Below are positions 8,374-59,534 of a stretch of DNA of 64,000 bases, piece after piece. A program made the translations under genes and the position numbers. Source of the stretch: a virus; the IMG/VR virus record IMGVR_UViG_3300029448_007456, positions 1-64,000 of that record. The stretch is one strand, 5' to 3'. The first letter of the stretch is position 1. The number at the start of each line of letters is the position of its first letter. The notes beneath the pieces are model-generated. The model had not been told where the DNA came from. It worked only from the letters and a program-made list of their open reading frames with translations, and searched no databases.

Positions 8374-10590
8374 TTATTCTCCTATGACGAATTCGTCTTT
8401 GTCTTTGTTGTATGAAATAGTAAGTGCAATATCTTGCAACGACTCAAACAATATCTTCTTTGATAGTGGCAGTTTGATTCTGTTGTTGATAACTCTCTGT
8501 AGTGGACGAGCACCCATTTTTTCATCAAACCCTTCTTCTATGAGTTGTGTTTTTGCAGTTTCATCTAATTTAATTGCAATTCCTTTTTCATTCACTTGAT
8601 TATCCAGTTGTTGAACAAACTTTTCAACAATGTTTGTCATGACTTCTTTGGACAATGTTTTAAATCTTAACACAGCATCCAGCCTGTTTCTAAACTCTGG
8701 TGAAAAGAATGAGTTGATGTCTACTTCACCATCATGAGTGGTGTTATCCATAAATCCAAGTGTGTTAGCCTGCATGTCTTCTGCACCTAAGTTTGATGTC
8801 ATTAATATCACTGAATTGTTCAATCTAACTTTTTTACCGTTGGATGCAGTAATCACAGCATCGTCCATTGCCTGTAGCAATATTGTCATCACATCTCTGT
8901 GTGCTTTTTCAACTTCATCAAACAATATCACTGCATTAGGATGTTTTTCTAATTCATTTACCAATTGACCAGAGCCTGTGGCACCGTCATCATATCCAAC
9001 ATATCCCGGAGGCGCACCAATCAGTTTTGCCACCGCATGTTTTTCTTGATATTCTGACATGTCAAATTTTATAAGTGGGATGTTCATTCCATCAGCCAAT
9101 CTCCTAGCAGTTTCTGTTTTGCCACAACCTGTTGGCCCAACACACAAAAAAGATCCAATTGGTTTATTTTCCTGTTTCAATCCTGCTTGTGCAACCAAAA
9201 CTGTGTCCACTAATTTATCCACTACTTCATCTTGTCCAAACACTTGCGTTTTAATATTTGTGTTTAGGTTCTCCAGTGATTCTGTTTTAGTTTGCACAAT
9301 AGACTCGAACTTGACACCTGATATCTTGGCAACTTGTTCTTGAACATCTTTGACTTCGACATCTCTAAAGGCATCAAATATTTTTGCCTTTGAGCATGCC
9401 CTATCCAAAACGTCAATTGATTTGTCTGGCAGTTGCCTGTCAGTAATGTATTTTACAGAATAATCCACAGAAGCATCAATAGATGTGTTAGTAATTTTTA
9501 CATTATGAAATGCTTCAAACTGATCCTTTAGTCCAATCATTATTTGTTTGGCGTGTTCAACTGAAGGCTCTTCAATGTTGACTTTTGCAAATCTACGCAT
9601 CAAGGCACGATCTTTTTCAAAATGTTTGCGATATTCTTCCCAAGTGGTTGATGCTATTACTTTTAAATCGCCTCTCGCCAAATGTGGCTTTAGTAAATTA
9701 GCAAGATCAACTCCTCCTTGTCCGCCAGCTCCTGCTCCATGCATCATATGAGCCTCATCAATAAACATGATAGCTTTGTTGTTTTTTTCTAACACTCCTA
9801 GCAACACCTTTAAACGTTCTTCAAAGTCACCACGATACTTGGATCCTGCAATCAATGATCCAACGTCTACAGAATATATAATGTGATCTTTGATCACATC
9901 TGGCACTTTTCCATTCACAATCATATGTGCAAGTCCTTCTGCCACAGCAGTCTTTCCTACTCCAGGATCACCTATCATGATAACATTATTTTTAATTTTT
10001 CTTCCTAATACCAGAGTGATCTCATCAACCACATCTTGTCTTCCAATGCATTGAAATGTTTTTTGTGCTTTGGCTTGTTCGTTGAGATTCACTGTGTATT
10101 GTTTTAAAATCTTACTGGCTTGCTTAGAGGACACTTTTTGTTCTTCCATGTTTTCTGTGCCAACATCAGTCATGTGATCAATTACGATACGTTTTGGAAA
10201 GAAGTTTTTTTCTAAGTAATAATAGGCGTAGGATTCCTTTTCAGAATATATTGAACTCAGCAAATGAAATACATTAACCATTTCTGTGCCTTGGAATATG
10301 GCTGTGGTAAATGCACGATTAACACATCTTTCAGTGGCCTGTGTTCTTTTAGGATACACATCTTCATTTACTTTTACATCATTCATTTTGTTACCAATAT
10401 GATCTGCTAAGTCTTTTAACAATTGATCATATTTTACTGTTGGTTTATCTTTGACCATATCAACAACTTCTGGCTGTAACAACAGCACAGATAGTAGATG
10501 TTCTAATGTGATGTATTCGTGATTGTTTTTACGAGCAATCTTAATTGCTTCATCAAATAACCCTTTTAATCTATCGTCTGCTTGTATCAT
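8374..10590 (-). CDS. clpA: ATP-dependent Clp protease ATP-binding subunit ClpA
   Basis: Clp-N domain, two AAA modules (GDPGVGKT; GPTGCGKT), KYRGDFEERL, GAPPGYVG, LGF ClpP-docking loop. Confidence 0.93.
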   Translation of the reverse strand: MIQADDRLKGLFDEAIKIARKNNHEYITLEHLLSVLLLQPEVVDMVKDKPTVKYDQLLKDLADHIGNKMNDVKVNEDVYPKRTQATERCVNRAFTTAIFQGTEMVNVFHLLSSIYSEKESYAYYYLEKNFFPKRIVIDHMTDVGTENMEEQKVSSKQASKILKQYTVNLNEQAKAQKTFQCIGRQDVVDEITLVLGRKIKNNVIMIGDPGVGKTAVAEGLAHMIVNGKVPDVIKDHIIYSVDVGSLIAGSKYRGDFEERLKVLLGVLEKNNKAIMFIDEAHMMHGAGAGGQGGVDLANLLKPHLARGDLKVIASTTWEEYRKHFEKDRALMRRFAKVNIEEPSVEHAKQIMIGLKDQFEAFHNVKITNTSIDASVDYSVKYITDRQLPDKSIDVLDRACSKAKIFDAFRDVEVKDVQEQVAKISGVKFESIVQTKTESLENLNTNIKTQVFGQDEVVDKLVDTVLVAQAGLKQENKPIGSFLCVGPTGCGKTETARRLADGMNIPLIKFDMSEYQEKHAVAKLIGAPPGYVGYDDGATGSGQLVNELEKHPNAVILFDEVEKAHRDVMTILLQAMDDAVITASNGKKVRLNNSVILMTSNLGAEDMQANTLGFMDNTTHDGEVDINSFFSPEFRNRLDAVLRFKTLSKEVMTNIVEKFVQQLDNQVNEKGIAIKLDETAKTQLIEEGFDEKMGARPLQRVINNRIKLPLSKKILFESLQDIALTISYNKDKDEFVIGE

Positions 10591-23489: not shown

Positions 23490-23553
23490 AAAAAATATTT
23501 AATTGAAGATGAAATGGTGCCCATGTAAAATGAGCACCATGATGTTAGTCGAT

Positions 23554-24147
23554 TTAGGTAAACGCTGTTGCGAGTGTGCCATCACTGAAGTTGACACCGG
23601 TCACATACCAAAGAGCGTCTGTGATACATACATAGTTGAGCATGCTACCAAGGAAACGTCCTTTTGTGTCAGCACCAGCAACAAACTGGTGATCAGCCGC
23701 TGCCGGGATGTCTAGTCCAAGTGTTGCACCTGCGTTAGTAGCCACTACACTACCCACGTTGTCCTTATCAATCATAATAAGGGCGCCTTGTAGCACATCA
23801 GATGATGAAGCTGCGTTGACTGTGAATGTGTTTGATGTCACAGTGGTTCCTAAGTGGAAACTGTAACATAAACCAGCTGTTGCCGCTGGAAGTGTTACCA
23901 CACAACCTGCCGCCGCATTGATAGTAAAAATACTACCTGACTGTGCGATTGTTGGAGCTAGTGTTGCGGCAGTGCTTGCCACAATGTTTTGCTTTAAGTT
24001 AAGTGATAAAGGCACACCACCTGCTGTTGAGCCATCTGAGATAAAGAACTGATTGGAAGAATCATCGAAGAATAAATCTCCGTCTTGACCTGTGTGACTT
24101 GCACGAGCCTGTGTTATAACCTTGGCGTGAAATTTACGTGTTGCCAT
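23554..24147 (-). CDS. Virion structural protein (putative decoration/fibre)
   Basis: Ala/Thr-rich; VTLPAATAG; strong SD; late promoter and structured leader. Confidence 0.55.
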   Translation of the reverse strand: MATRKFHAKVITQARASHTGQDGDLFFDDSSNQFFISDGSTAGGVPLSLNLKQNIVASTAATLAPTIAQSGSIFTINAAAGCVVTLPAATAGLCYSFHLGTTVTSNTFTVNAASSSDVLQGALIMIDKDNVGSVVATNAGATLGLDIPAAADHQFVAGADTKGRFLGSMLNYVCITDALWYVTGVNFSDGTLATAFT

Positions 24148-24168
24148 TTTGTTTTCTCCTTATAAGAA

Positions 24169-24237
24169 GTCCAATGTACGTTTTAGGTACTACGCGGAGG
24201 TCCGCATAAGTCTTACATCCTGTAAGCTCTATTAGAC
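24169..24237 (-). ncRNA. Putative structured 5' leader (four-way junction)
   Basis: P1 GUCUAAU/AUUGGAC enclosing CUUAC/GUAAG, UAUGCGG/CCGCGUA and GUAC/GUAC hairpins, between TAAATA (24242-24247) and SD. Confidence 0.55.
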
Positions 24238-24277
24238 ACAGTATTTAACACTGTGCCTAATGAAAAATAAGTAGGTA

Positions 24278-25573
24278 TTATGATACAGTTGCGCCTTGAA
24301 CGCTAACAATGTTCCATTTGCCAGTGGTGCCATCAAACAGTAAAGTAGCTGCTTCGCCCACTGCATTGAACAATATTTGTGTTGCCCAGTTGCCGTTGGT
24401 GTTGTCTAGGATAGCATTGTTGCCTGCCACAACCATCACAATATGTATAACTTGTCCATTAACACCATCTGCAATGGACAAAGTTGCTGTGTCACTGCCT
24501 GTGTTCAATAAGCACACACCAACAGTGATTTCGATGGCATTTGATCCACCAGCACCTGTGATTGTGTCTGTTTCTAATATTTGGAATGCATGATTGACTG
24601 AGCCGTTTACTCTTGTAGGGCCTTCAACATGTAAAGCATCGTCGATTGTTACTTCAGTTGAGTCTGTTGATTGAATTGATCCACCAATACTGATGCCATC
24701 ATTGATTGTTACTCTTGAAGAGTCATTGGATGATATTGTGTTGGTATCAATGGTGTCTGCTGAAAGTGTGCCTGACACATTCACAGCTTCAGTGATTTGT
24801 ATTCCTGCTGATGCTGTGGATGATATGATGTCTGTGTCCAAAGATTGGATTTGCACACTGACAGAATCTTCTCCAACTATTTCTTGCACCCTTAAAGTTC
24901 CACCAATTGTTACAGCGCCAGAAACATTTAATCCATCGTCGATTTGAATTGCTGTTGAATCTGTTGATGAAATTGTGTTTGTATCAATGGTATCAACACT
25001 CAGTGTGCCTGACACATTTAATCCATCATTTAATTGTATTGCTGTTGAATCTCCAGATGATATTTCGTTGATTTGTAACGTGTCGCCTTCAAAGTTTGCC
25101 ACAATAGTTGCTGTGGCGTTTAATGACACTGCTGAAGAATCTGATGTGCCTGCTGTGCCAGCTCTAAATTTGTCTGTGCCTTCATCCCAGAAGAAATATG
25201 CCGCATCAGATGAGCCTCTGTTGACATAAAATCCAGCATCAATGTCTGCACCAGAGGAGTTGTTGCTGTTAAGTTCTAGAAAGTTGTCTTCTACTGTGAG
25301 TTGGCTTGTTTCTATTTGTGTGTTTGTTCCGTTTACTACTAGGTCGCCTTCGATCACAACTTTGCCTGTTCCGTTTGCGTCAATTGTTAAGTCCCCGTTT
25401 GTGATCGTGTTGGTTATTGTTGATCCTGTGAGTGTAATATTTGATAGACTGCTTCCGCCTAATTTGTCATATACTTCATTGAAGTTGTCGTTGATTTTAT
25501 CAAATGCTGTTCTTAGCGGATCACCGGTGCCATCATTGGCTGCTGATCCTATGTTAATCGTTTGTTGGCTCAT
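24278..25573 (-). CDS. Tail fibre/baseplate protein, T4 gp9/gp10-like N-terminus with internal repeats
   Basis: INIGSAANDGTGDPLRTAFDKINDNFNEVY; repeats of ISSxDSTAIQIxDGLNVSGTLSxDTIDTNT. Confidence 0.75.
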   Translation of the reverse strand: MSQQTINIGSAANDGTGDPLRTAFDKINDNFNEVYDKLGGSSLSNITLTGSTITNTITNGDLTIDANGTGKVVIEGDLVVNGTNTQIETSQLTVEDNFLELNSNNSSGADIDAGFYVNRGSSDAAYFFWDEGTDKFRAGTAGTSDSSAVSLNATATIVANFEGDTLQINEISSGDSTAIQLNDGLNVSGTLSVDTIDTNTISSTDSTAIQIDDGLNVSGAVTIGGTLRVQEIVGEDSVSVQIQSLDTDIISSTASAGIQITEAVNVSGTLSADTIDTNTISSNDSSRVTINDGISIGGSIQSTDSTEVTIDDALHVEGPTRVNGSVNHAFQILETDTITGAGGSNAIEITVGVCLLNTGSDTATLSIADGVNGQVIHIVMVVAGNNAILDNTNGNWATQILFNAVGEAATLLFDGTTGKWNIVSVQGATVS

Positions 25574-25627: not shown

Positions 25628-25909
25628 ATGTTCATCAAAGAAACCACAGAAATACACCTACATCAACGCGAATCTAAGTTGGGCAACGTTCATAATTTCA
25701 AACGCAGACGTAGTGTGTATCACTTCAAATGTGACTGCTGTGATAAGGAGTTCATGCGTGACAAATCCAAAGTAACACCCAGCAGAGCATCTAATAATTT
25801 TCATCATGTGTGTGCCAAATGTGATGTCCATAAATATGCTCAGCAAGTAGGCGTCAACATGCGTAAGATTTACAAATTAGATGCCAGTTCAATAGAGGTC
25901 AAAATATAG
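25628..25909 (+). CDS. Cys-rich hypothetical protein
   Basis: CDCC...HVCAKC; TAAATA at 25603-25608. Confidence 0.6.
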   Translation: MFIKETTEIHLHQRESKLGNVHNFKRRRSVYHFKCDCCDKEFMRDKSKVTPSRASNNFHHVCAKCDVHKYAQQVGVNMRKIYKLDASSIEVKI

Positions 25910-27768
25910 TGTCAAAACAAAACATTTATCTGTGCCAGTTTTCATCGTGTTATCCTGGTGCTAGAAAGATATTGTATTATCCTTACAGCGTTGGCATGAT
26001 TTGGAGTTATGCTAAAACGATACCGGAAATCGATCAATCATTCCATTGTAAGTTTTTTCTGGAGAAAAAAGAATTCACAGAGATCATAGACAGACTGGAA
26101 GATCCTGCATTGATCGGATTGTCTTCATATGTGTGGAACCACAACTACAATCTTAAACTTGCTGAAATGATTAAAGAAAAATATCCAGATTGTCTCACTG
26201 TGATTGGTGGCCCTAGTGTGCCTTTCAGAGACAAAAACTTCCTACAAGACCATTCCTACATTGATTTTGCAATATATCACGAAGGTGAACTTGCATTCAC
26301 AGACCTACTACTTCACATCAAAAAAAACAAACCAAAACATGATATTCGAGGCATAGGATTTATAGACAGCAACGGAGAAATTGTAGCCAACAAGGCCGAA
26401 AGGATTCCTGATCTTGATAACATCCCTTCACCTTATTCAACAGGACTTTTTGATGAACTCACAGAAGAATACAAAGACACAGACATAATATTAAATGTGG
26501 TAACAGAAACCAACAGAGGTTGTCCATATTCATGCACATTCTGTGACTGGGGAAATGGTACTCTTGGCAAAGTGCATCAAATGGACATATGTAGAACTTT
26601 ACAGGAACTTGATTGGTTCAGTGAAAACAAGATTGAGTATCTGCACATTGCTGATGCAAACTTTGGACTAAAACGTAAAAAAGACTTAGACATAATCGGA
26701 TATGCGGCAAAATTAAAACGCGAAACAGGATTTCCAAGAACTATCAATTATACCTTGAGTAAAAAATTTTTTCCAGAACATTTGGAAATTGCAAAAGTTT
26801 TATTAGACAATCAAATGATGAGACATTTCACACTAAGTCTTCAAGACAGACACGATGATGTTTTAGATGCTATCAAAAGAAAAAACATAGATCATGACTC
26901 ATACATGAACATCAAAGATATGTGCGATGAAAGAAATATTCCAATGTGCACCGAGTTGATGATTCCATTACCCAGACAAACATTTGACAGTTTTATGGAC
27001 CAAATAGAATTTTTGATAAAACACAACATATATCCACATTTTAGTCCCACCACTATTCTTCCTGGTGCTGAAATGGCCGACCCAGAATATCAAAAAAAGT
27101 ATGGAATGAAAACAGTATTAAGTGCCATGAAACACAGTGAATATGCAGAAGAATATGAAGAAGTTGTGATTGAAACAAATACAATGAAAAAAGAAGATAT
27201 GAACGAAGCACTGATCTTGGTTTGGTTGATTGATGTATTTCAATCATACGGATTTGCTGACATAGTTTGCGACTTTTATTGTAAAACAGAAAACAAAAGA
27301 TTAAGAGATTTTTATCGTTTGCTGTTTCAGTTTTTTGTTGATAAACCAGACAGCATGTTGTTTAAGTATTTTGATCCAGTTAAAGATCATGTCAATACCA
27401 AAGACACCTATAAATTATATCCAGGTAAAGATACAGAAGGAATAATACAAGAAATAGGATATGATTGCAGAGAACAATTTTTCAAAGAATTTGAAACATT
27501 CATGCACACTGTGATTCCAGAACAATACATCAAAGACTTATTGGCCATACAAAAAGTAAGGCAAACACATTCGTATGACAAAACAGAAGAAATAGTACTA
27601 TTAGATCAAGATGTTTATGGATATACCAAACACGAGTCCGAACTAGCGCCAGCCACATACAAAATAAAATACAAACCCATCGAAAAACATTTCGAATACT
27701 ACTGCAATTTTATGGTGCACGGGGTAATGTTCAAAAGATGGAAACCTTTAGAAATAAAGAAAATTTAA
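25909..27768 (+). CDS. B12-binding radical SAM protein (class B-like)
   Basis: IGLSSYVWN, VIGGP, EGE; ETNRGCPYSCTFCDW. Confidence 0.88.
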   Translation: MSKQNIYLCQFSSCYPGARKILYYPYSVGMIWSYAKTIPEIDQSFHCKFFLEKKEFTEIIDRLEDPALIGLSSYVWNHNYNLKLAEMIKEKYPDCLTVIGGPSVPFRDKNFLQDHSYIDFAIYHEGELAFTDLLLHIKKNKPKHDIRGIGFIDSNGEIVANKAERIPDLDNIPSPYSTGLFDELTEEYKDTDIILNVVTETNRGCPYSCTFCDWGNGTLGKVHQMDICRTLQELDWFSENKIEYLHIADANFGLKRKKDLDIIGYAAKLKRETGFPRTINYTLSKKFFPEHLEIAKVLLDNQMMRHFTLSLQDRHDDVLDAIKRKNIDHDSYMNIKDMCDERNIPMCTELMIPLPRQTFDSFMDQIEFLIKHNIYPHFSPTTILPGAEMADPEYQKKYGMKTVLSAMKHSEYAEEYEEVVIETNTMKKEDMNEALILVWLIDVFQSYGFADIVCDFYCKTENKRLRDFYRLLFQFFVDKPDSMLFKYFDPVKDHVNTKDTYKLYPGKDTEGIIQEIGYDCREQFFKEFETFMHTVIPEQYIKDLLAIQKVRQTHSYDKTEEIVLLDQDVYGYTKHESELAPATYKIKYKPIEKHFEYYCNFMVHGVMFKRWKPLEIKKI

Positions 27769-36760: not shown

Positions 36761-36875
36761 AGTTTGTTCTCCTATAGGTTTTTTCTTGCGACTAAAAGTA
36801 TTGCTACTTTATAGAAGCTGGCCCACGCATTCAAGCATTGAGGTCATTTAATGCTTCACGTCTAAAAGGCGTTGT
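36761..36875 (-). ncRNA. Putative structured 5' leader RNA
   Basis: AAGCAUU/AAUGCUU stem, AAAGUA-GCAA-UACUUU and UC-GCAA-GA GNRA hairpins, CC-UAUA-GG overlapping SD. Confidence 0.45.
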
Positions 36876-36899
36876 CTTGTATATTTACCTAACAACGCC
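36864..36899 (-). terminator. Rho-independent terminator with TAAATA in its loop
   Basis: GGCGTTGT/ACAACGCC stem followed by TTTT; TAAATA at 36882-36887. Confidence 0.7.
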
Positions 36900-36912
36900 C
36901 TGTGACATTTGA

Positions 36913-37920
36913 CTAGTTTAGAGTTGCATTGACGGCATCAATGCCATCTTGGTCTAGCCATTTAATCCATACATCAGGATATGCTTTGAGGAACGATTCC
37001 ACAGATTCTTCAGCAGTTTCTTGCTGTTCATCCATTTTTACGATCAAACTGTTGAACAAGTTGATGTCAATGGATCTTGTGCCTAGATACTGCATGACAT
37101 CGCCATTTTGTGACATGTCACTTGATACCATTGTGTACAGAGTTGGCACACTGAAATCTGTAATTTTAGGTGAATCACAATCTTCCTTTTGGATACAATT
37201 GACCCAATGATCTGTTCCTGCAAATCCTTTGCCTGTTGGGATAGGTTGTAGATCGTACTTGCTAACCATGCCTGCTGGTTCCCAATAGAATCCAAACCAG
37301 TGATCGTCACTGTTGCCTGCCTTGCCAATACTACCGTCTAGGCCAACACCTGAACCTGGATCAACTATTTCCCAACCTTTTTCTTCTGCTCCATAGGCTT
37401 CTAAGATTTTTACTGTTGTGGTTGCACAACCCCACCCCACTGGACAGACATAAACTTTGCCGCCAAATATTTGAGGATTGTCTAACACATCTTCAACAGT
37501 TTTAAGTTCTGGATATGCTTCAAGTGTCTTAGGAAGCACATACCAATTTTCGCTAGCTCCACCTGAGATTGGCTCTTCGTTGGCAATAACTCCTGTGCCT
37601 CTTGCCAACGCATCGTCAACAATGCCTTGCACAGTTGATGCCCACAGTTCGCTGGCAACATCTGGTTCGCTTTTTTCTGCAAGGCTGGTGGCCAGTCCTA
37701 CAGTTCCGCCTTGAATCATTTGAATATTACAACCATACACTGTTTCTAGTATATACTTGTCCAAGTGGCCTAAGAATGCCGCAGATGACCATGTCATTTC
37801 TGCAACAGTGATATCGCCACAAGTTGTGTCAGCAATACTTGTCTTAGATTGCAACATTAATGCACCTGAGAACAATAATGCCACCAACATTGCTAATGTT
37901 ACTCCTGTTTTAGTCTTCAT
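36913..37920 (-). CDS. Glycine betaine/proline-type ABC substrate-binding protein
   Basis: Signal peptide, AEMTWSSA, CPVGWGC, FYWEP (OpuAC/ProX family). Confidence 0.8.
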   Translation of the reverse strand: MKTKTGVTLAMLVALLFSGALMLQSKTSIADTTCGDITVAEMTWSSAAFLGHLDKYILETVYGCNIQMIQGGTVGLATSLAEKSEPDVASELWASTVQGIVDDALARGTGVIANEEPISGGASENWYVLPKTLEAYPELKTVEDVLDNPQIFGGKVYVCPVGWGCATTTVKILEAYGAEEKGWEIVDPGSGVGLDGSIGKAGNSDDHWFGFYWEPAGMVSKYDLQPIPTGKGFAGTDHWVNCIQKEDCDSPKITDFSVPTLYTMVSSDMSQNGDVMQYLGTRSIDINLFNSLIVKMDEQQETAEESVESFLKAYPDVWIKWLDQDGIDAVNATLN

Positions 37921-46787: not shown

Positions 46788-47397
46788 GCAAATATTTATT
46801 GAAATTTTGCGTGGTATCCCTTGAAAAATTTGCATGTCTATGCCACTGTTTTGGACATTGATATTCTGCAGGTGCTATCCAAACAAAATTGACATGTGGA
46901 TAACTTTCAAACAGTTTGTCCAATTGATGATGCCAATACTTAGGATCGACTGCTTTGTTATCATATCCATTTGTATTGGCATACACATTAGTGTAGTTGT
47001 TTTGTTGTGTCATATCGAAACCGATCAGATAGCAAAGATTGGTTGTCTGCATGTTCCATTCATAGTTTTTAAATGCACAAGCAATGTTGATTGCATGTGG
47101 ACCTGAATTCCAATGCCAAGGGTTGTCTTCTCTTTCAGTTCCATTGTATGGCAGTTCTGGATAAGCACTTACCATGAACTTAGTATTCCAGTTTGGTCTA
47201 GTGTATAACTGTCCTGGGTAGTCAGATGATAATACCTCAGCAACCATTCGCTGATCAGCGGCTGACACTATGTCTGGATGAAAGTCTCTTACGATTGCGT
47301 TACAGCCGACAGTGACTCCTTGCTTTTTACAAGAGTCAAGATCTATCGGCTGTCTGCTCTCACCATTGCCTATTACAAAGGTGATGCGTTTTTTCAT
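46777..47397 (-). CDS. Hypothetical protein, GT29/DUF115-like Rossmann fold
   Basis: VIGNGESR, GCNA, NSGP, LIGFD. Confidence 0.5.
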   Translation of the reverse strand: MKKRITFVIGNGESRQPIDLDSCKKQGVTVGCNAIVRDFHPDIVSAADQRMVAEVLSSDYPGQLYTRPNWNTKFMVSAYPELPYNGTEREDNPWHWNSGPHAINIACAFKNYEWNMQTTNLCYLIGFDMTQQNNYTNVYANTNGYDNKAVDPKYWHHQLDKLFESYPHVNFVWIAPAEYQCPKQWHRHANFSRDTTQNFNKYLHDT

Positions 47398-49175
47398 TAA
47401 AATAGATATTTTAAACTGACAGCAAATTCTCTGCCAGGCTGTGTATATCCCATTGGTCTTTCATATGCCAAATCAGTCACGTTGTTGATTGTGGCAGTTA
47501 CTTCAGTGGCGTCACTCACTTTATACAAAAGTCCGATGTCTGTGTAGTGTTGTTCACTATTGGTCACAGTTGACCAATTGGTTGGGTGAATATCTTTGTG
47601 TTCACCATAGTAGTTCCAATCATACCAAACTTTCAACTTGTCTGTGACATCATGACCTAAACCAACCACAGCAGAATACTGCGGGCGTCTAGTTAATTGC
47701 ACATCATCTGAATCCTGTGCATGCACGGACGTTACACTAAAGTTGATTGTTGTGTCATCATACTGTTGTTTGTTCTGCAACTCCCAACCTTCCATAGAAC
47801 TGGTTCCAGTTGTGTTGTTATAAGTTGAGTTTGAATAAGATATCATGTTGTCAATTTTTGTGGAAAACACAACAAACTTGCTGTCCATACTGACATATTC
47901 GTTTTTGACTTTTGACACCAATCCAATTTCGTTGTTCACTGAACGTTCTTCTTCAAGACTAGCATTGCCTGAATATCCGAAGTTGTCAGCACCATACATT
48001 TCATACAGTGTAGGCGCACGGAATCCTGTGTTGTGTCCTGCAATGGCTGTCATGTGGTCATTTAATTTGTAACCAACACCAAGTCGATACGTGTTAACAT
48101 CATCATGTAAACTGTTAGTATCATGTCTAACTCCTGTGTTCAACAACACATTACCTAGTTTGTAATCTGCATTTAGAAAATATGCATTTGCTTGTGCTGA
48201 TTTGTCCACAGATGAATTGTAAGATCCTTTGTTGTCAAATTTTGCTGTGTAGGCTGATCCTTCTGTTCCAACGGTGTATTCTACTGGCCCAAATGTATTG
48301 GTATGGGATAGTTTGATATGATTAGTTGAACTGTCGTAAGTGTCTATCTCTGTGCCATTCACATATTCACGGTCATGCACGTTTCTATCAATGACAAAAT
48401 TTACAACATCTGATTCGTATCTTGCTTGTAAAAAGTAAAAATCTGAATCTGATGTGTAGTCAGTGTCGTCAGTGCCACCTGCATCAAGGTCAGCACTTGC
48501 ATCTCTATACACCACTGTGGTGCCAATTTTTGCATTTTCAGTGTAGTGCGTTGAATCAAAGTTCAATGTCTGATACTGATATCCGTCATTGTCTCCGCCT
48601 TCTACAATAGAATATCCATCGGATGATTCTTGATACATTTTAATAGAGTATATTCCTGATGGTTGTGCAGTAAAATAGTTTACTCCAAGGCCTGCGGTGT
48701 TGTTAGATCCAGTCTTAAGTTCTACACTGTCTTCTAATGTGCCTCCAGTGTTGATGTTAATAGCACCACCAATTGCACCAGGTCCCCAAAGTGTGCTCTG
48801 CGATCCTTTGTATAAATCAATTGAACCTGCATAAGTCACTGAATCTACACCTGCATCAAACAATCCGTTAGTTGTAGAATGGTCAGTTACTGGTGATCCG
48901 TTGATCATAAACAGTGTGTGGTTGGAATTAGTTCCTCTTGTAAACACAGAGGTTTGTTGTCCACGTGGTCCAGATCTTATTGCTTGAAATGAAGTATTGC
49001 TGTCCAGCACTTCACCTATGGTCACAGTGTTCTTATAGGACTGTGTTTTGACTGTGTCCACATTTGTTGTTAATAAACTTTTGTCACTTGGCACAATATA
49101 CAGTGTGACATCAAGAGCACTGGCAGTTGCTATTGATCCAAAAACAAAAGTCAAGATTATCGTTAGTATTTTCAT
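47397..49175 (-). CDS. btuB: TonB-dependent cobalamin receptor
   Basis: Plug motif SVFTRGTNSNHTLFMING, GFRAPTLYE, NNVTD..Y..PGR..YLF; preceded by Cbl riboswitch; start MKILT after SD. Confidence 0.88.
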   Translation of the reverse strand: MKILTIILTFVFGSIATASALDVTLYIVPSDKSLLTTNVDTVKTQSYKNTVTIGEVLDSNTSFQAIRSGPRGQQTSVFTRGTNSNHTLFMINGSPVTDHSTTNGLFDAGVDSVTYAGSIDLYKGSQSTLWGPGAIGGAININTGGTLEDSVELKTGSNNTAGLGVNYFTAQPSGIYSIKMYQESSDGYSIVEGGDNDGYQYQTLNFDSTHYTENAKIGTTVVYRDASADLDAGGTDDTDYTSDSDFYFLQARYESDVVNFVIDRNVHDREYVNGTEIDTYDSSTNHIKLSHTNTFGPVEYTVGTEGSAYTAKFDNKGSYNSSVDKSAQANAYFLNADYKLGNVLLNTGVRHDTNSLHDDVNTYRLGVGYKLNDHMTAIAGHNTGFRAPTLYEMYGADNFGYSGNASLEEERSVNNEIGLVSKVKNEYVSMDSKFVVFSTKIDNMISYSNSTYNNTTGTSSMEGWELQNKQQYDDTTINFSVTSVHAQDSDDVQLTRRPQYSAVVGLGHDVTDKLKVWYDWNYYGEHKDIHPTNWSTVTNSEQHYTDIGLLYKVSDATEVTATINNVTDLAYERPMGYTQPGREFAVSLKYLF

Positions 49176-49178
49176 AAA

Positions 49179-49278
49179 GTCTCCTTGCTTTGTTCTACCC
49201 CTAGGTGGCATTCGGACTATAACCGTATCAAGTAATGTGAACGAATTTCACGTCGCTTTCCCACTATGCTTTTAGGAA
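49179..49278 (-). ncRNA. Cobalamin riboswitch, class IIa (AdoCbl-variant)
   Basis: CCUAAAAGCAUAGUGGGAAAGCGACGUGAAAUUCGUUCACAUUACUUGAUACGGUUAUAGUCCGAAUGCCACCUAGG...GCAAGGAG; near-identical in layout to the env8 HyCbl riboswitch. Confidence 0.93.
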
Positions 49279-49823: not shown

Positions 49824-51350
49824 ATGATTGATTTCCTATTAATCACTGGCCCTGTGAGAGACTTAACTTTTGCACCAATGGCACTAGCACAGTTAAAAAG
49901 TATCAGCGAAGCGGCTGGATTCACATGTAAAACCATAGATTACAATCAAAAATACTTTCATCACCAATGCAACAAAGACAAAAACAAGTTTTATGAACAA
50001 ACCAAAATGTTTAGAAACACTTTGCCACTGACCTATGATGAAATTGCCAACAGTCATTGTGGTACTTGGTTGGCACATAAAGTAATACAAGATGTCAAAA
50101 AATACAATCCTAAGACAGTTGGGGTGAGCAGTTTTAGTAGATACAACAACATATCTTGCGTGTTGATCTGTAAAATTATCAAACAGCATTTTGCACACAT
50201 CAAAATTATTATTGGTGGATATGGTCTACACAATCCCCTAAATTATCTAGATGCCTTTGATGCAACTCTACAATCACAACCCGAAGTTGGCGAGTTACTC
50301 AAAGTCAACAACTTATGTGACACCTATATTATCGGTGATGCAGAACACAAATTGATAGAATGGTTGAAAGATCACACAGTGGATTATTCTGGATTGAACA
50401 AAAGGATTATTGATGCCAATTGGACTGATACTCCTTATGCTGACTTCGAGGATCTCGACATAGAAAATTACGACTATCACAAAGGATTAATACTACCAAT
50501 GACTGGCAGTAAAGGATGTGTAAGAAAATGCACTTTCTGTGACATCCCACATAACTTTGGTAAATTTTCGTTCAAGTCAGGAAAATCAATAGCAGATGAA
50601 GTGATGCATCTTTATGAACACTATGGAGCCAAAACAATTTATTTTACAGATTCGCTGGTGAATGGCAGCCTCAGTGCATTCATTGATTATGTAGAAACTT
50701 TAGCAGAACTAAAAGCAAAGAAAGGGTATGACGATCTAAGATGGACTGGACAATACATTGTGAGACCAGCACATCAAATTCCTGATCCGGAAAATTATTA
50801 TGCTCTGTTGAATGAAAGTGGAGCAGAAGGACTTACTATAGGTATTGAGTCTGGCAGTAACAAAGTTTTGGCTGAAATGAAAAAACACTGCACTGTGGAT
50901 GATATTCTCACTGAAATCAATTATTTTTCCTCACATGATGTGTCTTGTGGTATATTATTGTTTCCTGCATTTCCATCTGAGACTAGACAAGATTTTTTAG
51001 CCACAGTGAAAATGTTGAAAAAATTACAACCATATTGGTGCAACGGTACAATAAATCTTGTAAACTTCAACACATTTTATGGCAATGAAAATTACAGTGA
51101 ATGGGGTAAAAAGACAGAACAAGACGGCATGTATTCACATCCCAATGATCATAGTTTATGGTGGTATAAAAATAATCCAAAACTAGATTACAAAGAGATT
51201 GTGTTTAGGAGACTGGTATTGAATAAGTTGGTTGAAACTCTCAATATTCCAACCAATCACGAATATGACTACATGACCCAAATTCATAATTATTTTACAA
51301 CAAACATAGGAAAGGTAAAAAAGTTTCATGCTGACATTAAAAAACATTGA
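49824..51350 (+). CDS. B12-binding radical SAM protein
   Basis: APMALA, VGVSSFS, IIGG, GDAE; SKGCVRKCTFCD; IGIESGS. Confidence 0.85.
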   Translation: MIDFLLITGPVRDLTFAPMALAQLKSISEAAGFTCKTIDYNQKYFHHQCNKDKNKFYEQTKMFRNTLPLTYDEIANSHCGTWLAHKVIQDVKKYNPKTVGVSSFSRYNNISCVLICKIIKQHFAHIKIIIGGYGLHNPLNYLDAFDATLQSQPEVGELLKVNNLCDTYIIGDAEHKLIEWLKDHTVDYSGLNKRIIDANWTDTPYADFEDLDIENYDYHKGLILPMTGSKGCVRKCTFCDIPHNFGKFSFKSGKSIADEVMHLYEHYGAKTIYFTDSLVNGSLSAFIDYVETLAELKAKKGYDDLRWTGQYIVRPAHQIPDPENYYALLNESGAEGLTIGIESGSNKVLAEMKKHCTVDDILTEINYFSSHDVSCGILLFPAFPSETRQDFLATVKMLKKLQPYWCNGTINLVNFNTFYGNENYSEWGKKTEQDGMYSHPNDHSLWWYKNNPKLDYKEIVFRRLVLNKLVETLNIPTNHEYDYMTQIHNYFTTNIGKVKKFHADIKKH

Positions 51351-54892: not shown

Positions 54893-56809
54893 ATGCTTAA
54901 TTTAGTGTTAGCACAACCTGGTTTCAGTTGGGGACCATCTCATCTGAATGCTCATTATCTTCCTTATTCAGTTGGTTGTTTGTGGGCGAAATGTCTAGAC
55001 AATCAAACAATTGTTGAAAATGTTGAACTTTTAGACATGATTGCTGTGCGTGAAGATATTCAACACTTTGTTGACAAATATGATAAAATTGATGTTATTG
55101 GTTTTTCTTGCTATGTTTGGAATTACAATTATGTCAATGCTTTAGCCAAAGCAATCAAACGCAAGTTTCCTGAGTGTGTTGTGGTTTTCGGAGGCCCAGA
55201 ACCAGAACACAGTGATCAAGACATATTTGTCAATAAACCTTGGCTTGACTGTGTGGTGGTGCAGGAAGGCGAAGTTAGTTTTGAAAGAATTCTTGAATGC
55301 TTGATTACTAAAAAAAGTTTGGAAACAATTCCTGGATTGGTAATCAACAAACGGGGTCAAAGACTGGTTACACCCATATCACAAAGAATAACTGATCTTG
55401 AGTCCTTGCCTTCACCCTACATCAAGGGCGTGTTTGATCATTTGTTTCACAAACACCCTGATATCACTTGGACAGCCATAATGGAAACCAACAGAGGTTG
55501 TCCTTACAAATGCACATACTGTGATTGGGGTAGCCTCACATTAAGCAAGATCAAAAAGTTTTTGCTGGACAAAGTGGAACAAGAAATCAAATGGATGAGT
55601 GATAAAAAAATAGACTTTGTTAACATAGCAGATGCCAACTATGGCATTTTCAAAGAAAGAGATTTAGCCATCACACGACTATTTGGCAAATATAGATCAA
55701 TCACTGGATGGCCAAAAGCAGTCACAACCAATTGGACAAAAAATGCCAAGAAGCATGTGTTGGACATTGCTCAAGAATTCAAGGATCAAGGCATTGCAAA
55801 CAGTGTGACAGTCAGTTTACAGAGTCTACACGATGATGTGTTGGATGCTGTTGAAAGGAAAAATTTTGAACTCAACAATATCGAAGAAATGTCCATGGCT
55901 TGTTTTGAAAAACAATTACCAGTGGCTGTTGATTTAATTTTGGGATTGCCTATGGAAACAAAAAAATCTTGGAGGCAGACATACTACAAGTTATTTGATC
56001 TAGACATTCATCAAGATTTTTACACACATCAAGCCATGCTGTTGGAAAATGCACACATGAATCAAAATCAATTGCATCAGTATGGTATGGAAAAATTTAC
56101 AAGGCCCATCAAGTTTACTGAAGACAATATGCAACACACTGAATACGCAACCTTTGTCAAAAGCACAAACACAATGACGTATGATGATATGATTGACTGT
56201 GCAATGCACACCAATTGGATTTATGCTCTGCATCACACTGGCCTAAGTTCTGAGCAGAGCAAATTTTTGCACAAACACAGCGGGATACCTTATGCAACTT
56301 TTTACAATGGTCTGATTGAATTTTTGTTGCAACATGATTTTATGCACAATTGTTATCAGCAAAGCGTTGAGCAAATCAAGATGTCCTACAGTGATATAAA
56401 CCAACCCACTTTGGAACAAATTGACCTTAGCCTAAGTGGTGAGTTTAATATACTTGAATGGAATATTATTAATAAAAAGATTGAAACTGATATACAAAAT
56501 TGCATCAAAGAGTTCATTGACACACGATTTACAATTGACAAGGATCTAGTTGATCAGTTGGACGTATATGCACAACTCAGTTACTTGACATTTGAAAATC
56601 ATACGAAGTTTGATCAACTGTCACATGAATTTGATTATAATTTTTATGAGGTCAACAATTTAAATGCTGACATGGCAAAAGGCAAACATACATATGTTTT
56701 TAAGAAAAAGTTATCACAGACTTTTGAAAACACTGTGGACTATGCAAATTACATGATTGTGCGAAAACGTAACATTCCTTCAAAGAACATCATCACACAA
56801 CAAGATTAG
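54893..56809 (+). CDS. B12-binding radical SAM protein (paralogue of 25909..27768)
   Basis: LPYSVG, IGFSCYVWN, FGGP, EGE; ETNRGCPYKCTYCDW; TAAATA at 54876-54881. Confidence 0.88.
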   Translation: MLNLVLAQPGFSWGPSHLNAHYLPYSVGCLWAKCLDNQTIVENVELLDMIAVREDIQHFVDKYDKIDVIGFSCYVWNYNYVNALAKAIKRKFPECVVVFGGPEPEHSDQDIFVNKPWLDCVVVQEGEVSFERILECLITKKSLETIPGLVINKRGQRLVTPISQRITDLESLPSPYIKGVFDHLFHKHPDITWTAIMETNRGCPYKCTYCDWGSLTLSKIKKFLLDKVEQEIKWMSDKKIDFVNIADANYGIFKERDLAITRLFGKYRSITGWPKAVTTNWTKNAKKHVLDIAQEFKDQGIANSVTVSLQSLHDDVLDAVERKNFELNNIEEMSMACFEKQLPVAVDLILGLPMETKKSWRQTYYKLFDLDIHQDFYTHQAMLLENAHMNQNQLHQYGMEKFTRPIKFTEDNMQHTEYATFVKSTNTMTYDDMIDCAMHTNWIYALHHTGLSSEQSKFLHKHSGIPYATFYNGLIEFLLQHDFMHNCYQQSVEQIKMSYSDINQPTLEQIDLSLSGEFNILEWNIINKKIETDIQNCIKEFIDTRFTIDKDLVDQLDVYAQLSYLTFENHTKFDQLSHEFDYNFYEVNNLNADMAKGKHTYVFKKKLSQTFENTVDYANYMIVRKRNIPSKNIITQQD

Positions 56810-57097: not shown

Positions 57098-58465
57098 CTA
57101 ATTGCCCTGGGTGGTAGAAAGAGTGCAACCTGCTTGTGTGCCACAGGTCATGTCAATGCTGTAATCTTGATCAGTGGATCCTTGCTGTGACAGATCAAAA
57201 TCAGTGGAATAGCCATCTAGATCAACACGAGCCGCATGGTTACCAGTGCCAGTTTGACTGATATCCACATCATGTGCATAACTGCCTGTACCAAGTGTTA
57301 GATCTAAATAGTGTTCACCTGTGCCTGACTGATTGATATCAACAGTGTTGTTGCCATTGTCTATGTCCACAAACAAAAACTTATCCCCATCGTTTAACTG
57401 TTGCATGGTGATCACATTAGAAGAAGAATCTAAATCCACACTCATGAAGTGCTCTGAAGATGTTGTACCATCATTGCGTTGTTGTAAAGTCAATGTGTTG
57501 GTTGATCCATCAATATCAATCAGCATTCTGTGATCTCCTACATCAGTGGCATAGTCACCTTGGGATAGATTCAGTGTGTTGGTATTGCCTGTGATGTCTA
57601 GTCCTATGCCGTTCCTACCACTGCTTCCAGATGTAGTCACATTGCCTTGATCAATATTGAGTGTGTTGTCGTTGCCTGTGATTTGTGAATCACTGGACCA
57701 ATCACTGCCAACAACAAAATTATCATTGCCTGCTTGTTCAATATTAATTGTGTTGTTGTTGCCTTGCACATTCATTTTAATCCCGCTGTCTGATGTGCCT
57801 TTGGCTGTGTTCACTGCTGTGGTTTGTGAAGATGTGATTGTAACATTAACTGTGTTTTGGTCAGTGGTTGCAAAACCAGAGTTAGGCATATCTAACCAAC
57901 CACTTGTAGAGTTTAAACTTAAATTAGATAAACTATAATGTATATCCATATTAGCAGAACCACCCCATTCATACCAGTTAATTTGTATTGGGTACCATTG
58001 ACCACCAACACCAGAAAATGAACCACTAGAGTTCCAATATGTTGGTCCTTGTTGAGCCCAGTCAGATATTACTTTAGTATTATTGATGTTTACAATAAGT
58101 CCATCATCATTACGACCAGCAAAATAAACTGTTGATGTTTGACCTGTGGTTCCTGGATGTTGCCAATAACCGGTGATAACTACCATTCTCTGATTAGCAC
58201 CATAATTATTATTATGAAGAACTATATTTCCACTATTCCAGTTGTAATTTAAACTGTCAGTAGTACCAGTTCCTTGTGATAGACCTACATAACTTGGACT
58301 AGAATTATTACAGGTAGAGAGATATGTATAGTTGTTAAAACAAGGTGACTCTACATAAGGTGCATAATGACTAATTGCAAATACTTCATAATTTAAACTT
58401 CCTGCATATGCACTTGAACAAAGCAAAAACAAGATGCTACTGATTTTGAAGAATGCTAATTTCAT
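57098..58465 (-). CDS. Secreted PA14-like domain plus curlin-like repeat protein
   Basis: Signal peptide; NDDG...YEWGG (PA14); repeated IxQxGxxN units. Confidence 0.7.
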   Translation of the reverse strand: MKLAFFKISSILFLLCSSAYAGSLNYEVFAISHYAPYVESPCFNNYTYLSTCNNSSPSYVGLSQGTGTTDSLNYNWNSGNIVLHNNNYGANQRMVVITGYWQHPGTTGQTSTVYFAGRNDDGLIVNINNTKVISDWAQQGPTYWNSSGSFSGVGGQWYPIQINWYEWGGSANMDIHYSLSNLSLNSTSGWLDMPNSGFATTDQNTVNVTITSSQTTAVNTAKGTSDSGIKMNVQGNNNTINIEQAGNDNFVVGSDWSSDSQITGNDNTLNIDQGNVTTSGSSGRNGIGLDITGNTNTLNLSQGDYATDVGDHRMLIDIDGSTNTLTLQQRNDGTTSSEHFMSVDLDSSSNVITMQQLNDGDKFLFVDIDNGNNTVDINQSGTGEHYLDLTLGTGSYAHDVDISQTGTGNHAARVDLDGYSTDFDLSQQGSTDQDYSIDMTCGTQAGCTLSTTQGN

Positions 58466-59534
58466 TTTCCTGTCCGTTAATGGTGTAATCTATTATTTCG
58501 TAATCTTGTTGTTGCACATTTAATATATAAGTGTTTTCTTTGTCCAGCCTTAATTCAATAAAGTTGCCTGCCGCATCTTCTCTGCTCCACACAAAATGTG
58601 GATCTTCGTCTAGCAGTATAATTCCTGTTGTTGGATCTTTTCCAAACCGCTGTCCTTCGACTTTTTTGTCAAATTCACTTCTCATCTGTTTGGCCAGTTC
58701 TTCGTTGATTTGTTTTAGAATATCCACAAGAAAGTTTTGTTCTAAAAAATCAATATCCAATCCCGTTGCCCAATTTTCAATTTCTTCTTCTAAAGCATCG
58801 ACATTAAGATCATCAAATTCCAAAAAGTCAATGTCAAGTGCATTGGCCACAGCATTATAGGATGAATTGTCCTGTTGTTCTTGGATTTCTTTTGGCTTGC
58901 TAATAATTAACAAATTGTTGATCATATCTTCTTCTAAACTAAGAATCACTGGCCGCATGGGCACACTTGCAACAGTATCAACAACTGTAGCCTGGAATGC
59001 CTGGTTCATTATGACTTGACCAGCATCTGATTCAACTGATATTTCCCCCACATAACATTTTCCATCTGTGTTGCAACTTGGCAATAATATAATTGTGCTA
59101 CTTCCTATTTCGTCCACTGTCATGGCAAAATCAGTGCCTCTAACTCCTATGGTTGCTGTTGGAGTTTGTATCAATACATTCTGTTTGGAGTTTTTGGCAA
59201 TTTGTCCTGATGCATAACGCACAGTGCCAAGACCTGCTTTAAGCGACAACTTGCCTGTGCCACTGGCAGGATCATACACAAATTCATCAATAACAAGTTT
59301 TGAATGTTGGGTGATATCTACTCTGGTTTCATCAACAAATTCAATGGCAGTCTTGCCTTTGCCAGTTCGGACTGTGTCGTATGAAAACACATCAAGGTCA
59401 ATTTCAGTGACTGCTTCTTCGCCATCAGTACGCTCCACAGCACCAGTGCCTTCGTGCAGTATGACATTCCCTATACTGGCCCATGAGTTTACTGTCAGCA
59501 CAAAACTGCACAGCAAATAAAAAAGAAAGTTCAT
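58437..59534 (-). CDS. FecR-domain protein
   Basis: Signal peptide; DTVRTG; IQTPTATIGVRGTDF. Confidence 0.85.
   Translation of the reverse strand: MNFLFYLLCSFVLTVNSWASIGNVILHEGTGAVERTDGEEAVTEIDLDVFSYDTVRTGKGKTAIEFVDETRVDITQHSKLVIDEFVYDPASGTGKLSLKAGLGTVRYASGQIAKNSKQNVLIQTPTATIGVRGTDFAMTVDEIGSSTIILLPSCNTDGKCYVGEISVESDAGQVIMNQAFQATVVDTVASVPMRPVILSLEEDMINNLLIISKPKEIQEQQDNSSYNAVANALDIDFLEFDDLNVDALEEEIENWATGLDIDFLEQNFLVDILKQINEELAKQMRSEFDKKVEGQRFGKDPTTGIILLDEDPHFVWSREDAAGNFIELRLDKENTYILNVQQQDYEIIDYTINGQENEISILQNQ

Follow-up and report, generated by a model that had tools for sequence, protein, structure and literature searches.

Can an RNA leader fold according to where its transcription began? 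The question is raised by a spacer of 130 nt in a 64,000-nt viral stretch (the window, that is, the whole stretch of DNA analysed here), which runs on the minus strand from the stop codon of a 431-aa gene to the ATG of a 197-aa gene. A sequence-only reading had proposed that the spacer encodes a start-site-dependent switch, in which read-through RNA from an upstream fibre gene forms a hairpin around a late promoter, and RNA started inside that hairpin folds into a protein-binding four-way junction. All helices named in that reading are present in the spacer, on the minus strand, and the 151-nt stretch folds with a z score of −3.56, matched by none of 200 shuffles. There is indeed a gene upstream; its product is a gp9/gp10-like baseplate wedge or tail-fibre connector, not a fibre proper.

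Judged by its sequence, the source is an uncultured marine T4-like myovirus. Besides the gp9/gp10-like gene, the window encodes a clamp-loader-like ATPase, and an ATP-dependent ligase is present. The 197-aa protein has its relatives in marine assemblies, those of Tara among them, and many ENA/Tara proteins are 60–98% identical to it; blastn found no counterpart of the locus among GenBank phages. The features of the locus, all on the minus strand, are these:

24278..25573 (−): 431-aa gp9/gp10-like baseplate gene (Pfam PF07880, PHROG 677), the source of any read-through RNA
24231..24261 (−): 13-bp hairpin around the late promoter, with arms 24261..24249 and 24243..24231 and loop UUAAA at 24248..24244
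24242..24249 (−): T4-type late-promoter motif GTTAAATA, with its core TAAATA at 24247..24242
24231..24237 (−): GUCUAAU, which ends the hairpin's 3′ arm (its final 7 nt), forms the 5′ strand of the outer stem P1 and is expected to open the late transcript
24227..24145 (−): cmscan match to Rfam RF02980 (freshwater-2), comprising P2, P3, P4, a single-stranded AAGGAG tail and the start codon
24212..24226 (−): P2 hairpin CUUACA-GGA-UGUAAG, with two-sided changes at 5 of 6 pairs among 11 relatives
24191..24208 (−): P3 hairpin UAUGCGG-ACCU-CCGCGUA, its stem invariant in 11 of 11 relatives and its loop 4 nt long here
24176..24190 (−): P4 hairpin GUAC-CUAAAAC-GUAC, with two-sided changes at 2 of 4 pairs and 100% of cells paired
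24169..24175 (−): AUUGGAC, 3′ strand of P1, pairing with GUCUAAU
24156..24169 (−): weak hairpin CUUCU-UAUA-AGGAG over the ribosome-binding site, with the Shine–Dalgarno sequence (SD) at 24160..24156
23554..24147 (−): open reading frame of the 197-aa late gene behind the leader, the N-terminus of its product weakly like the Mtd receptor-binding protein
23514..23540 (−): terminator-like hairpin just 3′ of the 197-aa gene, an 11-bp stem followed by a T-rich tail
36908..36866 (−): second promoter-in-hairpin, GGCGUUGU-[UAGGUAAAUAUACAAG]-ACAACGCC, terminator-like and GC-rich, with 8 bp and then UUUU

The folded leader and its RNA family

By its match to a covariance model, the folded stretch is a copy of a catalogued RNA motif, freshwater-2, and the multi-helix leader is not new. 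A comparison with Rfam, proposed in the sequence-only reading, returned RF02980 over its full length (model positions 1–84 of 84; 68.3 bits, E = 1.3e-10, with a gathering cut-off of 49.9 bits); this is the single copy in the phage record of 114,778 nt. Like the family, the window copy has three consecutive hairpins, the invariant UAUGCGG/CCGCGUA stem, a UA(G/A)AAC loop and, at its 3′ end, AAGGAG and AUG with a gene directly downstream. It departs from the family in its P3 loop (4 nt, against about 7 in the consensus) and in the gene behind it, a 197-aa MATRK gene where the family usually has an MGRP gene. Because the Rfam model begins at the first inner hairpin (P2), it contains no outer stem, promoter or upstream hairpin, whereas the window copy has all three. 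Freshwater-2 was reportedly first described in a comparative screen of 224 motifs. A full-text literature search for 'freshwater-2' found no paper, and the motif is absent from the main-text discussion of that 224-motif screen (PMC5737381).

For comparison, viral contigs were scanned for the invariant third hairpin, and more than 120 loci were found. Adding the loci reached by way of the 197-aa protein made 108 distinct leaders ending in an SD and ATG, 105 of which are uncut by a contig end. Two narrower searches of the viral contigs added nothing: an exact-tail pattern had 0 matches, and the new loci among the 120 that fit TAAATA-N3-6-GTCTAATAG were all chance matches. Among 11 close relatives of the window copy, 94.7% of cells are paired overall, compared with 28–51% when partners are slid. 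The conserved P4 loop agrees with UAGAAC, the consensus of the family.

Across more than 100 copies, the P3 stem and the P4 loop are invariant while the P2 and P4 stems covary; the invariance of P3 is partly imposed by a search pattern keyed on that hairpin, but it holds also in relatives fetched by protein similarity instead of the P3 motif. Such a pattern could mark a regulatory RNA that senses a ligand or a factor, either in the manner of a riboswitch or as the target of a shared protein of phage or host; P1 and the hairpin around the promoter would then be accessories. Rfam places RF02980 in its Cis-reg class, and the occurrence of the leader on unrelated genes (below) fits a common trans factor. 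However, the ligand, the binding protein and the expression platform of such a device are all hypothetical, and pairing of the P3 loop with the start codon cannot form in the window, where the shortened loop (ACCU) allows only 2 pairs with the start-codon (AUGGCA) region; a crude run-length test of this pairing was not discriminating (native mean 3.54 versus non-native 3.37). We regard a sensing RNA as possible but doubtful.

The late promoter and the outer stem

TAAATA lies 14–41 nt upstream of P3 in all 105 untruncated distinct leaders, with the consensus g-A-TAAATA-C, and the RNA therefore probably serves as the 5′ leader of late messages of the T4 type. Marine T4-like phages have NATAAATA as their late promoter (PMC2984593); the window motif, GTTAAATA, has T where 70% of copies have A. 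Sigma-70-like promoter matches were no commoner than in shuffled sequences. Because T4 geometry puts the start about 5 nt after the motif, we infer by analogy that late transcription begins at G24237 or U24236, the first bases of GUCUAAU. An orphan RNA motif is thereby placed directly behind T4-type late promoters in aquatic myoviruses, a setting that gives freshwater-2 testable roles in message stability and translation level.

In the minimum free energy structure of an RNA beginning at G24237, P1 and the three inner hairpins form a four-way junction, followed by CUUCU-UAUA-AGGAG and, nine nt later, the AUG. P1, at −7.1 kcal/mol, comprises 7 pairs, including one U-G. The outer stem GUCUAAU/AUUGGAC and the junction that it closes were thus correctly called from the letters alone, and so was the small helix over the SD, which adjoins the 3′ strand of P1.

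Beyond the window, the outer stem is far from universal, being present in about a third of copies. Among the 11 relatives, 92% of P1 cells are paired and all changes are one-sided (wobble); the hairpin over the ribosome-binding site has 81% of cells paired and little covariation. Of 38 distinct leaders with a GGAC-type tail, 26 can form a P1 of 6–8 contiguous pairs, beginning 4–6 nt past TAAATA, a further 3 have 5 pairs, and 8 have no partner. Across subfamilies only one double change was found, A-U to G-C (L030/L081). Another subfamily has a shifted equivalent, CAGAGCC/GGCUCUG, and the largest lacks both P1 and a CUUCU or CUCCU anti-SD; these anti-SD sequences occur in P1-bearing subfamilies and are also missing from L061 and L062. 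It is plausible, then, that P1 is a recurrent element specific to some subfamilies, although it is not proven by covariation. In L027, L069 and L111, whose tail is CGGAC, a complementary GUCC stands just upstream of TAAATA (UUGUCCAUAAAUA); it would exist only in read-through RNA, the opposite of the arrangement in the window.

What might closure by P1 achieve? 5′-terminal stem-loops, such as that of the ompA leader, stabilise bacterial mRNAs against 5′-end-dependent decay by RNase E. P1 resembles these stem-loops in that it would pair the first nucleotides of the late transcript, and differs from them in that most freshwater-2 copies lack it. By analogy with this E. coli parallel, a buried 5′ end may stabilise the late RNA. 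The dependence of RNase E on the 5′ end is cited in a review of T4 (PMC3014915).

The hairpin around the promoter

The hairpin that the sequence-only reading had placed around the promoter, 13 bp with TAAATA at its loop, is present on the minus strand with a predicted stability of −16.9 kcal/mol. Two of its 13 pairs are G-U, and TAAATA runs from the loop into the upper end of the 3′ arm. Of random positions in the genome, just 0.3% are enclosed by a hairpin of such strength. It occurs in 7 of the 105 distinct leaders (the window, L151, L152, L169, L154, L167 and L061), in which the hairpin segments fold at −14.7 to −19.3 kcal/mol, and three further loci (L307–L309) have leaders identical to that of L061.

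Within this clade, 96.9% of hairpin cells are paired (15–48% in slid-partner controls). Two-sided changes are found at 4 of the 13 pairs and one-sided changes at 2, only the two bottom pairs are ever lost, and the covariation score was reached by none of 500 shuffles. The window and L154 differ at a single base in the leader and by three flipped pairs in the hairpin. In L167, an A of the GUCUAAU strand has become G; the hairpin has a compensating change in its other arm, and P1 accommodates the substitution as a G-U pair. These compensatory changes, together with the pairing across the clade, indicate that the hairpin is under selection and is maintained in the window's clade. The covariation comes from five distinct sequences and, with one arm variant common to L154 and L061, from few independent events. 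The switch proposal depended on conservation among homologues, and it is found there: the hairpin covaries within the clade, and P2 and P4 covary among the 11 relatives.

This selection appears to be local. Hairpins enclosing the promoter at −8 kcal/mol or below were found in 12 leaders, where chance would give about 5; the window's clade accounts for 7 of them. Outside that clade, promoter-enclosing helices were no commoner than with mismatched partners, and TAAATA sites genome-wide showed no enrichment in hairpins. The clade hairpin offers what looks to be a clean example from nature of two helices that are both selected and exclude each other at a transcription start, one that could be used to ask whether the leader needs P1 closure to work.

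The position of the hairpin points to the end of the upstream message. It starts 14–25 nt past the upstream stop codon in 7 of 7 carriers, and it occupies the place of the canonical terminator that is present in 41 of 105 other leaders as a GC-rich hairpin and T-run, at a median of 27 nt upstream of the promoter; no canonical terminator precedes the promoter in the window's clade. The order is therefore comparable to the terminator-then-late-promoter order of other freshwater-2 leaders, with a hairpin between the upstream stop codon and the leader, but the window hairpin has no U-run, is richer in A and U, and contains the promoter instead of preceding it. The hairpin was rejected as an intrinsic terminator: the terminator scan was negative, there is no T-run, and the 3′ flank is AGAGCUUACA. 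Because a U-run is missing, termination there is not predicted, and a 3′-end role for the hairpin is conjecture. Downstream of the 197-aa gene, the terminator-like hairpin at 23540..23514 would, as modelled, bound a one-gene late message.

These observations bear on the simplest alternative, that the hairpin is nothing but a 3′-end or boundary structure of the upstream message (an exonuclease stabiliser or a weak terminator), with the promoter overlap due to compaction and the P1 overlap functionless. In its favour, along with the position of the hairpin, the same genome contains a comparable merger at 36908..36866, where the loop of the GC-rich hairpin with UUUU carries the late-promoter motif GGTAAATA; an OpuAC-like gene flanks it on one side and a 250-aa ORF on the other, and the leader there is 121 nt long. 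Moreover, L157, L166, L062 and L055 work without the hairpin. Against it stand not only the missing U-run and the negative terminator scan but also the company that the hairpin keeps, because it travels with the leader and not with the upstream gene. The gene ahead of hairpin and leader is the gp9/gp10-like one in the window but another, fibre-like gene in L151, L152, L154, L167 and L061, whereas L157 shares the window's upstream gene and has no promoter hairpin. In addition, the strand shared with P1 is either invariant or changed in ways compatible with both helices. We hold a boundary-only hairpin to be unlikely.

Ribosome access, gene partners and the favoured reading

In T4, the late promoters of e, soc, 49 and I-TevI lie inside regions encoding inhibitory hairpins, by which the SD or AUG is occluded when these regions are read through from early or middle promoters (reviewed in PMC3014915). 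The window resembles e and soc in having a TAAATA-type late promoter in a hairpin whose 5′ arm would be missing from transcripts started there, the start in the window being placed by geometry. The two cases differ in what the hairpin withholds. The T4 hairpins sequester the SD or AUG; the window hairpin sequesters a strand of a distal junction helix and leaves the predicted pairing of the SD unchanged. They differ also in the nature of the long RNA, which is an early or middle message in T4. By contrast, the upstream gene in the window, a baseplate gene, is probably itself late: its own motif of the TAAATA type, AGTAAATAA (25601), lies 22 nt ahead of its start, with a divergent region beyond.

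In the predicted folds, the long RNA makes the promoter hairpin, which excludes P1, and the RNA from G24237 makes P1 and the junction. Because GUCUAAU is common to two mutually exclusive helices and the promoter lies in the stronger one, read-through and late-start RNAs should fold differently; the folds and the maintained hairpin support this part of the switch proposal. The ribosome-binding site is predicted to sense little of it. The mean unpaired probability of AGGAG is 0.21 in the long form and 0.39 in the late form, and that of the SD core GAG is below 0.1 in both; L061 lacks an anti-SD, and its two values are 0.93 and 0.92. The hairpin ends about 70 nt ahead of the SD. Predicted access to the site therefore differs little between the two forms, so that the proposal is upheld as regards predicted folding, whereas the accompanying difference in translation is not predicted.

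A switch of the e/soc type, with a junction that binds a protein for autoregulation, perhaps the 197-aa product, is accordingly very unlikely in our view. The T4 precedent is real (PMC3014915), the promoter does lie in the stronger of two mutually exclusive helices, compensatory changes keep that hairpin, and the invariant P3 is suggestive of sequence-specific recognition. The second half of the e/soc logic, occlusion of the SD on the long RNA only, does not hold, with the SD core predicted to be paired in both forms and the hairpin far from it. Moreover, because the upstream gene is probably late and has its own late-promoter motif, an early message to silence is not expected and a timing device would have no obvious use, and the hairpin is found in only 7 of 105 leaders.

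The genes behind the leader argue against autoregulation in particular. Orthologues of the 197-aa protein at 84–86% identity have a short plain spacer and no freshwater-2 leader, and those at 78–80% identity have a different long leader behind GGTAAATA. Most freshwater-2 leaders head genes for MGRP-type proteins of about 130–160 aa that are unrelated to the 197-aa protein by BLAST. That close orthologues lack the leader and unrelated genes share it makes control by the 197-aa product, as the sequence-only reading had it, unlikely, and we reject it. Leaders that are nearly identical stand before an MGRP gene in L304 but before MATKK genes in L055 and L310, which is direct evidence of leader exchange between gene families. 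With two types of upstream gene and two downstream families, the leader therefore behaves as a portable promoter-leader cassette, and this portability points to a factor common to all copies, if to any.

For the 197-aa protein, a PDB search gave a single weak match, to Mtd (1yu2, E = 0.016). Pfam and PHROGs hold no family for it or for the MGRP proteins, and a protein atlas returned only viral hypothetical proteins for it. The leader behind GGTAAATA in the orthologues at 78–80% identity (L163–L165, L126 and L127) is conserved, measures about 125 nt and is found about 130 nt ahead of the orthologous gene; it is not freshwater-2 and may be a further late leader with structure. In L061 (10857..10560, minus strand), the MGRP gene is interrupted (MGRPITD, then a stop) and the family sequence resumes in another frame; in L307–L309, with leaders identical to that of L061, the MGRP genes are intact.

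The account that we lean towards, and hold to be somewhat likelier true than false, is that of a freshwater-2 late leader whose junction is closed by P1 and whose clade-specific hairpin is a boundary structure merged with the promoter. The element would be the 5′ leader, about 90 nt long, of a single-gene late mRNA. The phage late machinery would start about 5 nt past GTTAAATA, at G24237 or U24236, and the first 7 nt of the late RNA would pair with AUUGGAC, closing P2–P4 into the four-way junction and burying the 5′ end. Beside the junction, the weak CUUCU/AGGAG hairpin would temper ribosome access. The leader would act in cis as a portable module that determines how stable late virion-gene messages are and how strongly they are translated, with the invariant P3 stem and P4 loop as the likely contact for a family-wide factor and not for the product of the downstream gene. 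On read-through RNA, the promoter hairpin would form first and withhold the P1 strand, and the closed junction would arise only on transcripts from the leader's own promoter. The hairpin would serve mainly as a boundary or 3′-end structure of the upstream message, merged with the promoter, and the alternative fold would be a consequence of that merger, not a demonstrated translational switch.

A bolder version of the same folding, which we think unlikely, is a start-site sensor confined to one marine clade, in which RNAs from the leader's own promoter close the junction and read-through RNAs are locked open by the hairpin. If true, the difference in fold would change stability, factor binding or translation, and would widen the e/soc principle, in which the SD is occluded directly, to control at a distance by a leader of several helices. 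Because freshwater-2 is already catalogued and the alternative fold has no demonstrated functional consequence, the finding adds detail, a modest clade-specific addition to a known family, and not a new kind of system.

Elsewhere, the window encodes an AdoCbl-II riboswitch (RF01689, 78.4 bits; 49278..49198, minus strand), directly 5′ of a gene for a phage-borne TonB-dependent receptor (49211..47397, minus strand) with a Plug and a beta-barrel, BtuB-like. Three genes for B12-binding or radical-SAM proteins are found near this riboswitch (25909..27768, 49824..51350 and 54893..56809). On the minus strand, the window also encodes a ClpB-like AAA+ chaperone (8374..10590), the OpuAC-like glycine-betaine-binding protein (36913..37920) and a FecR-like protein (58437..59534).
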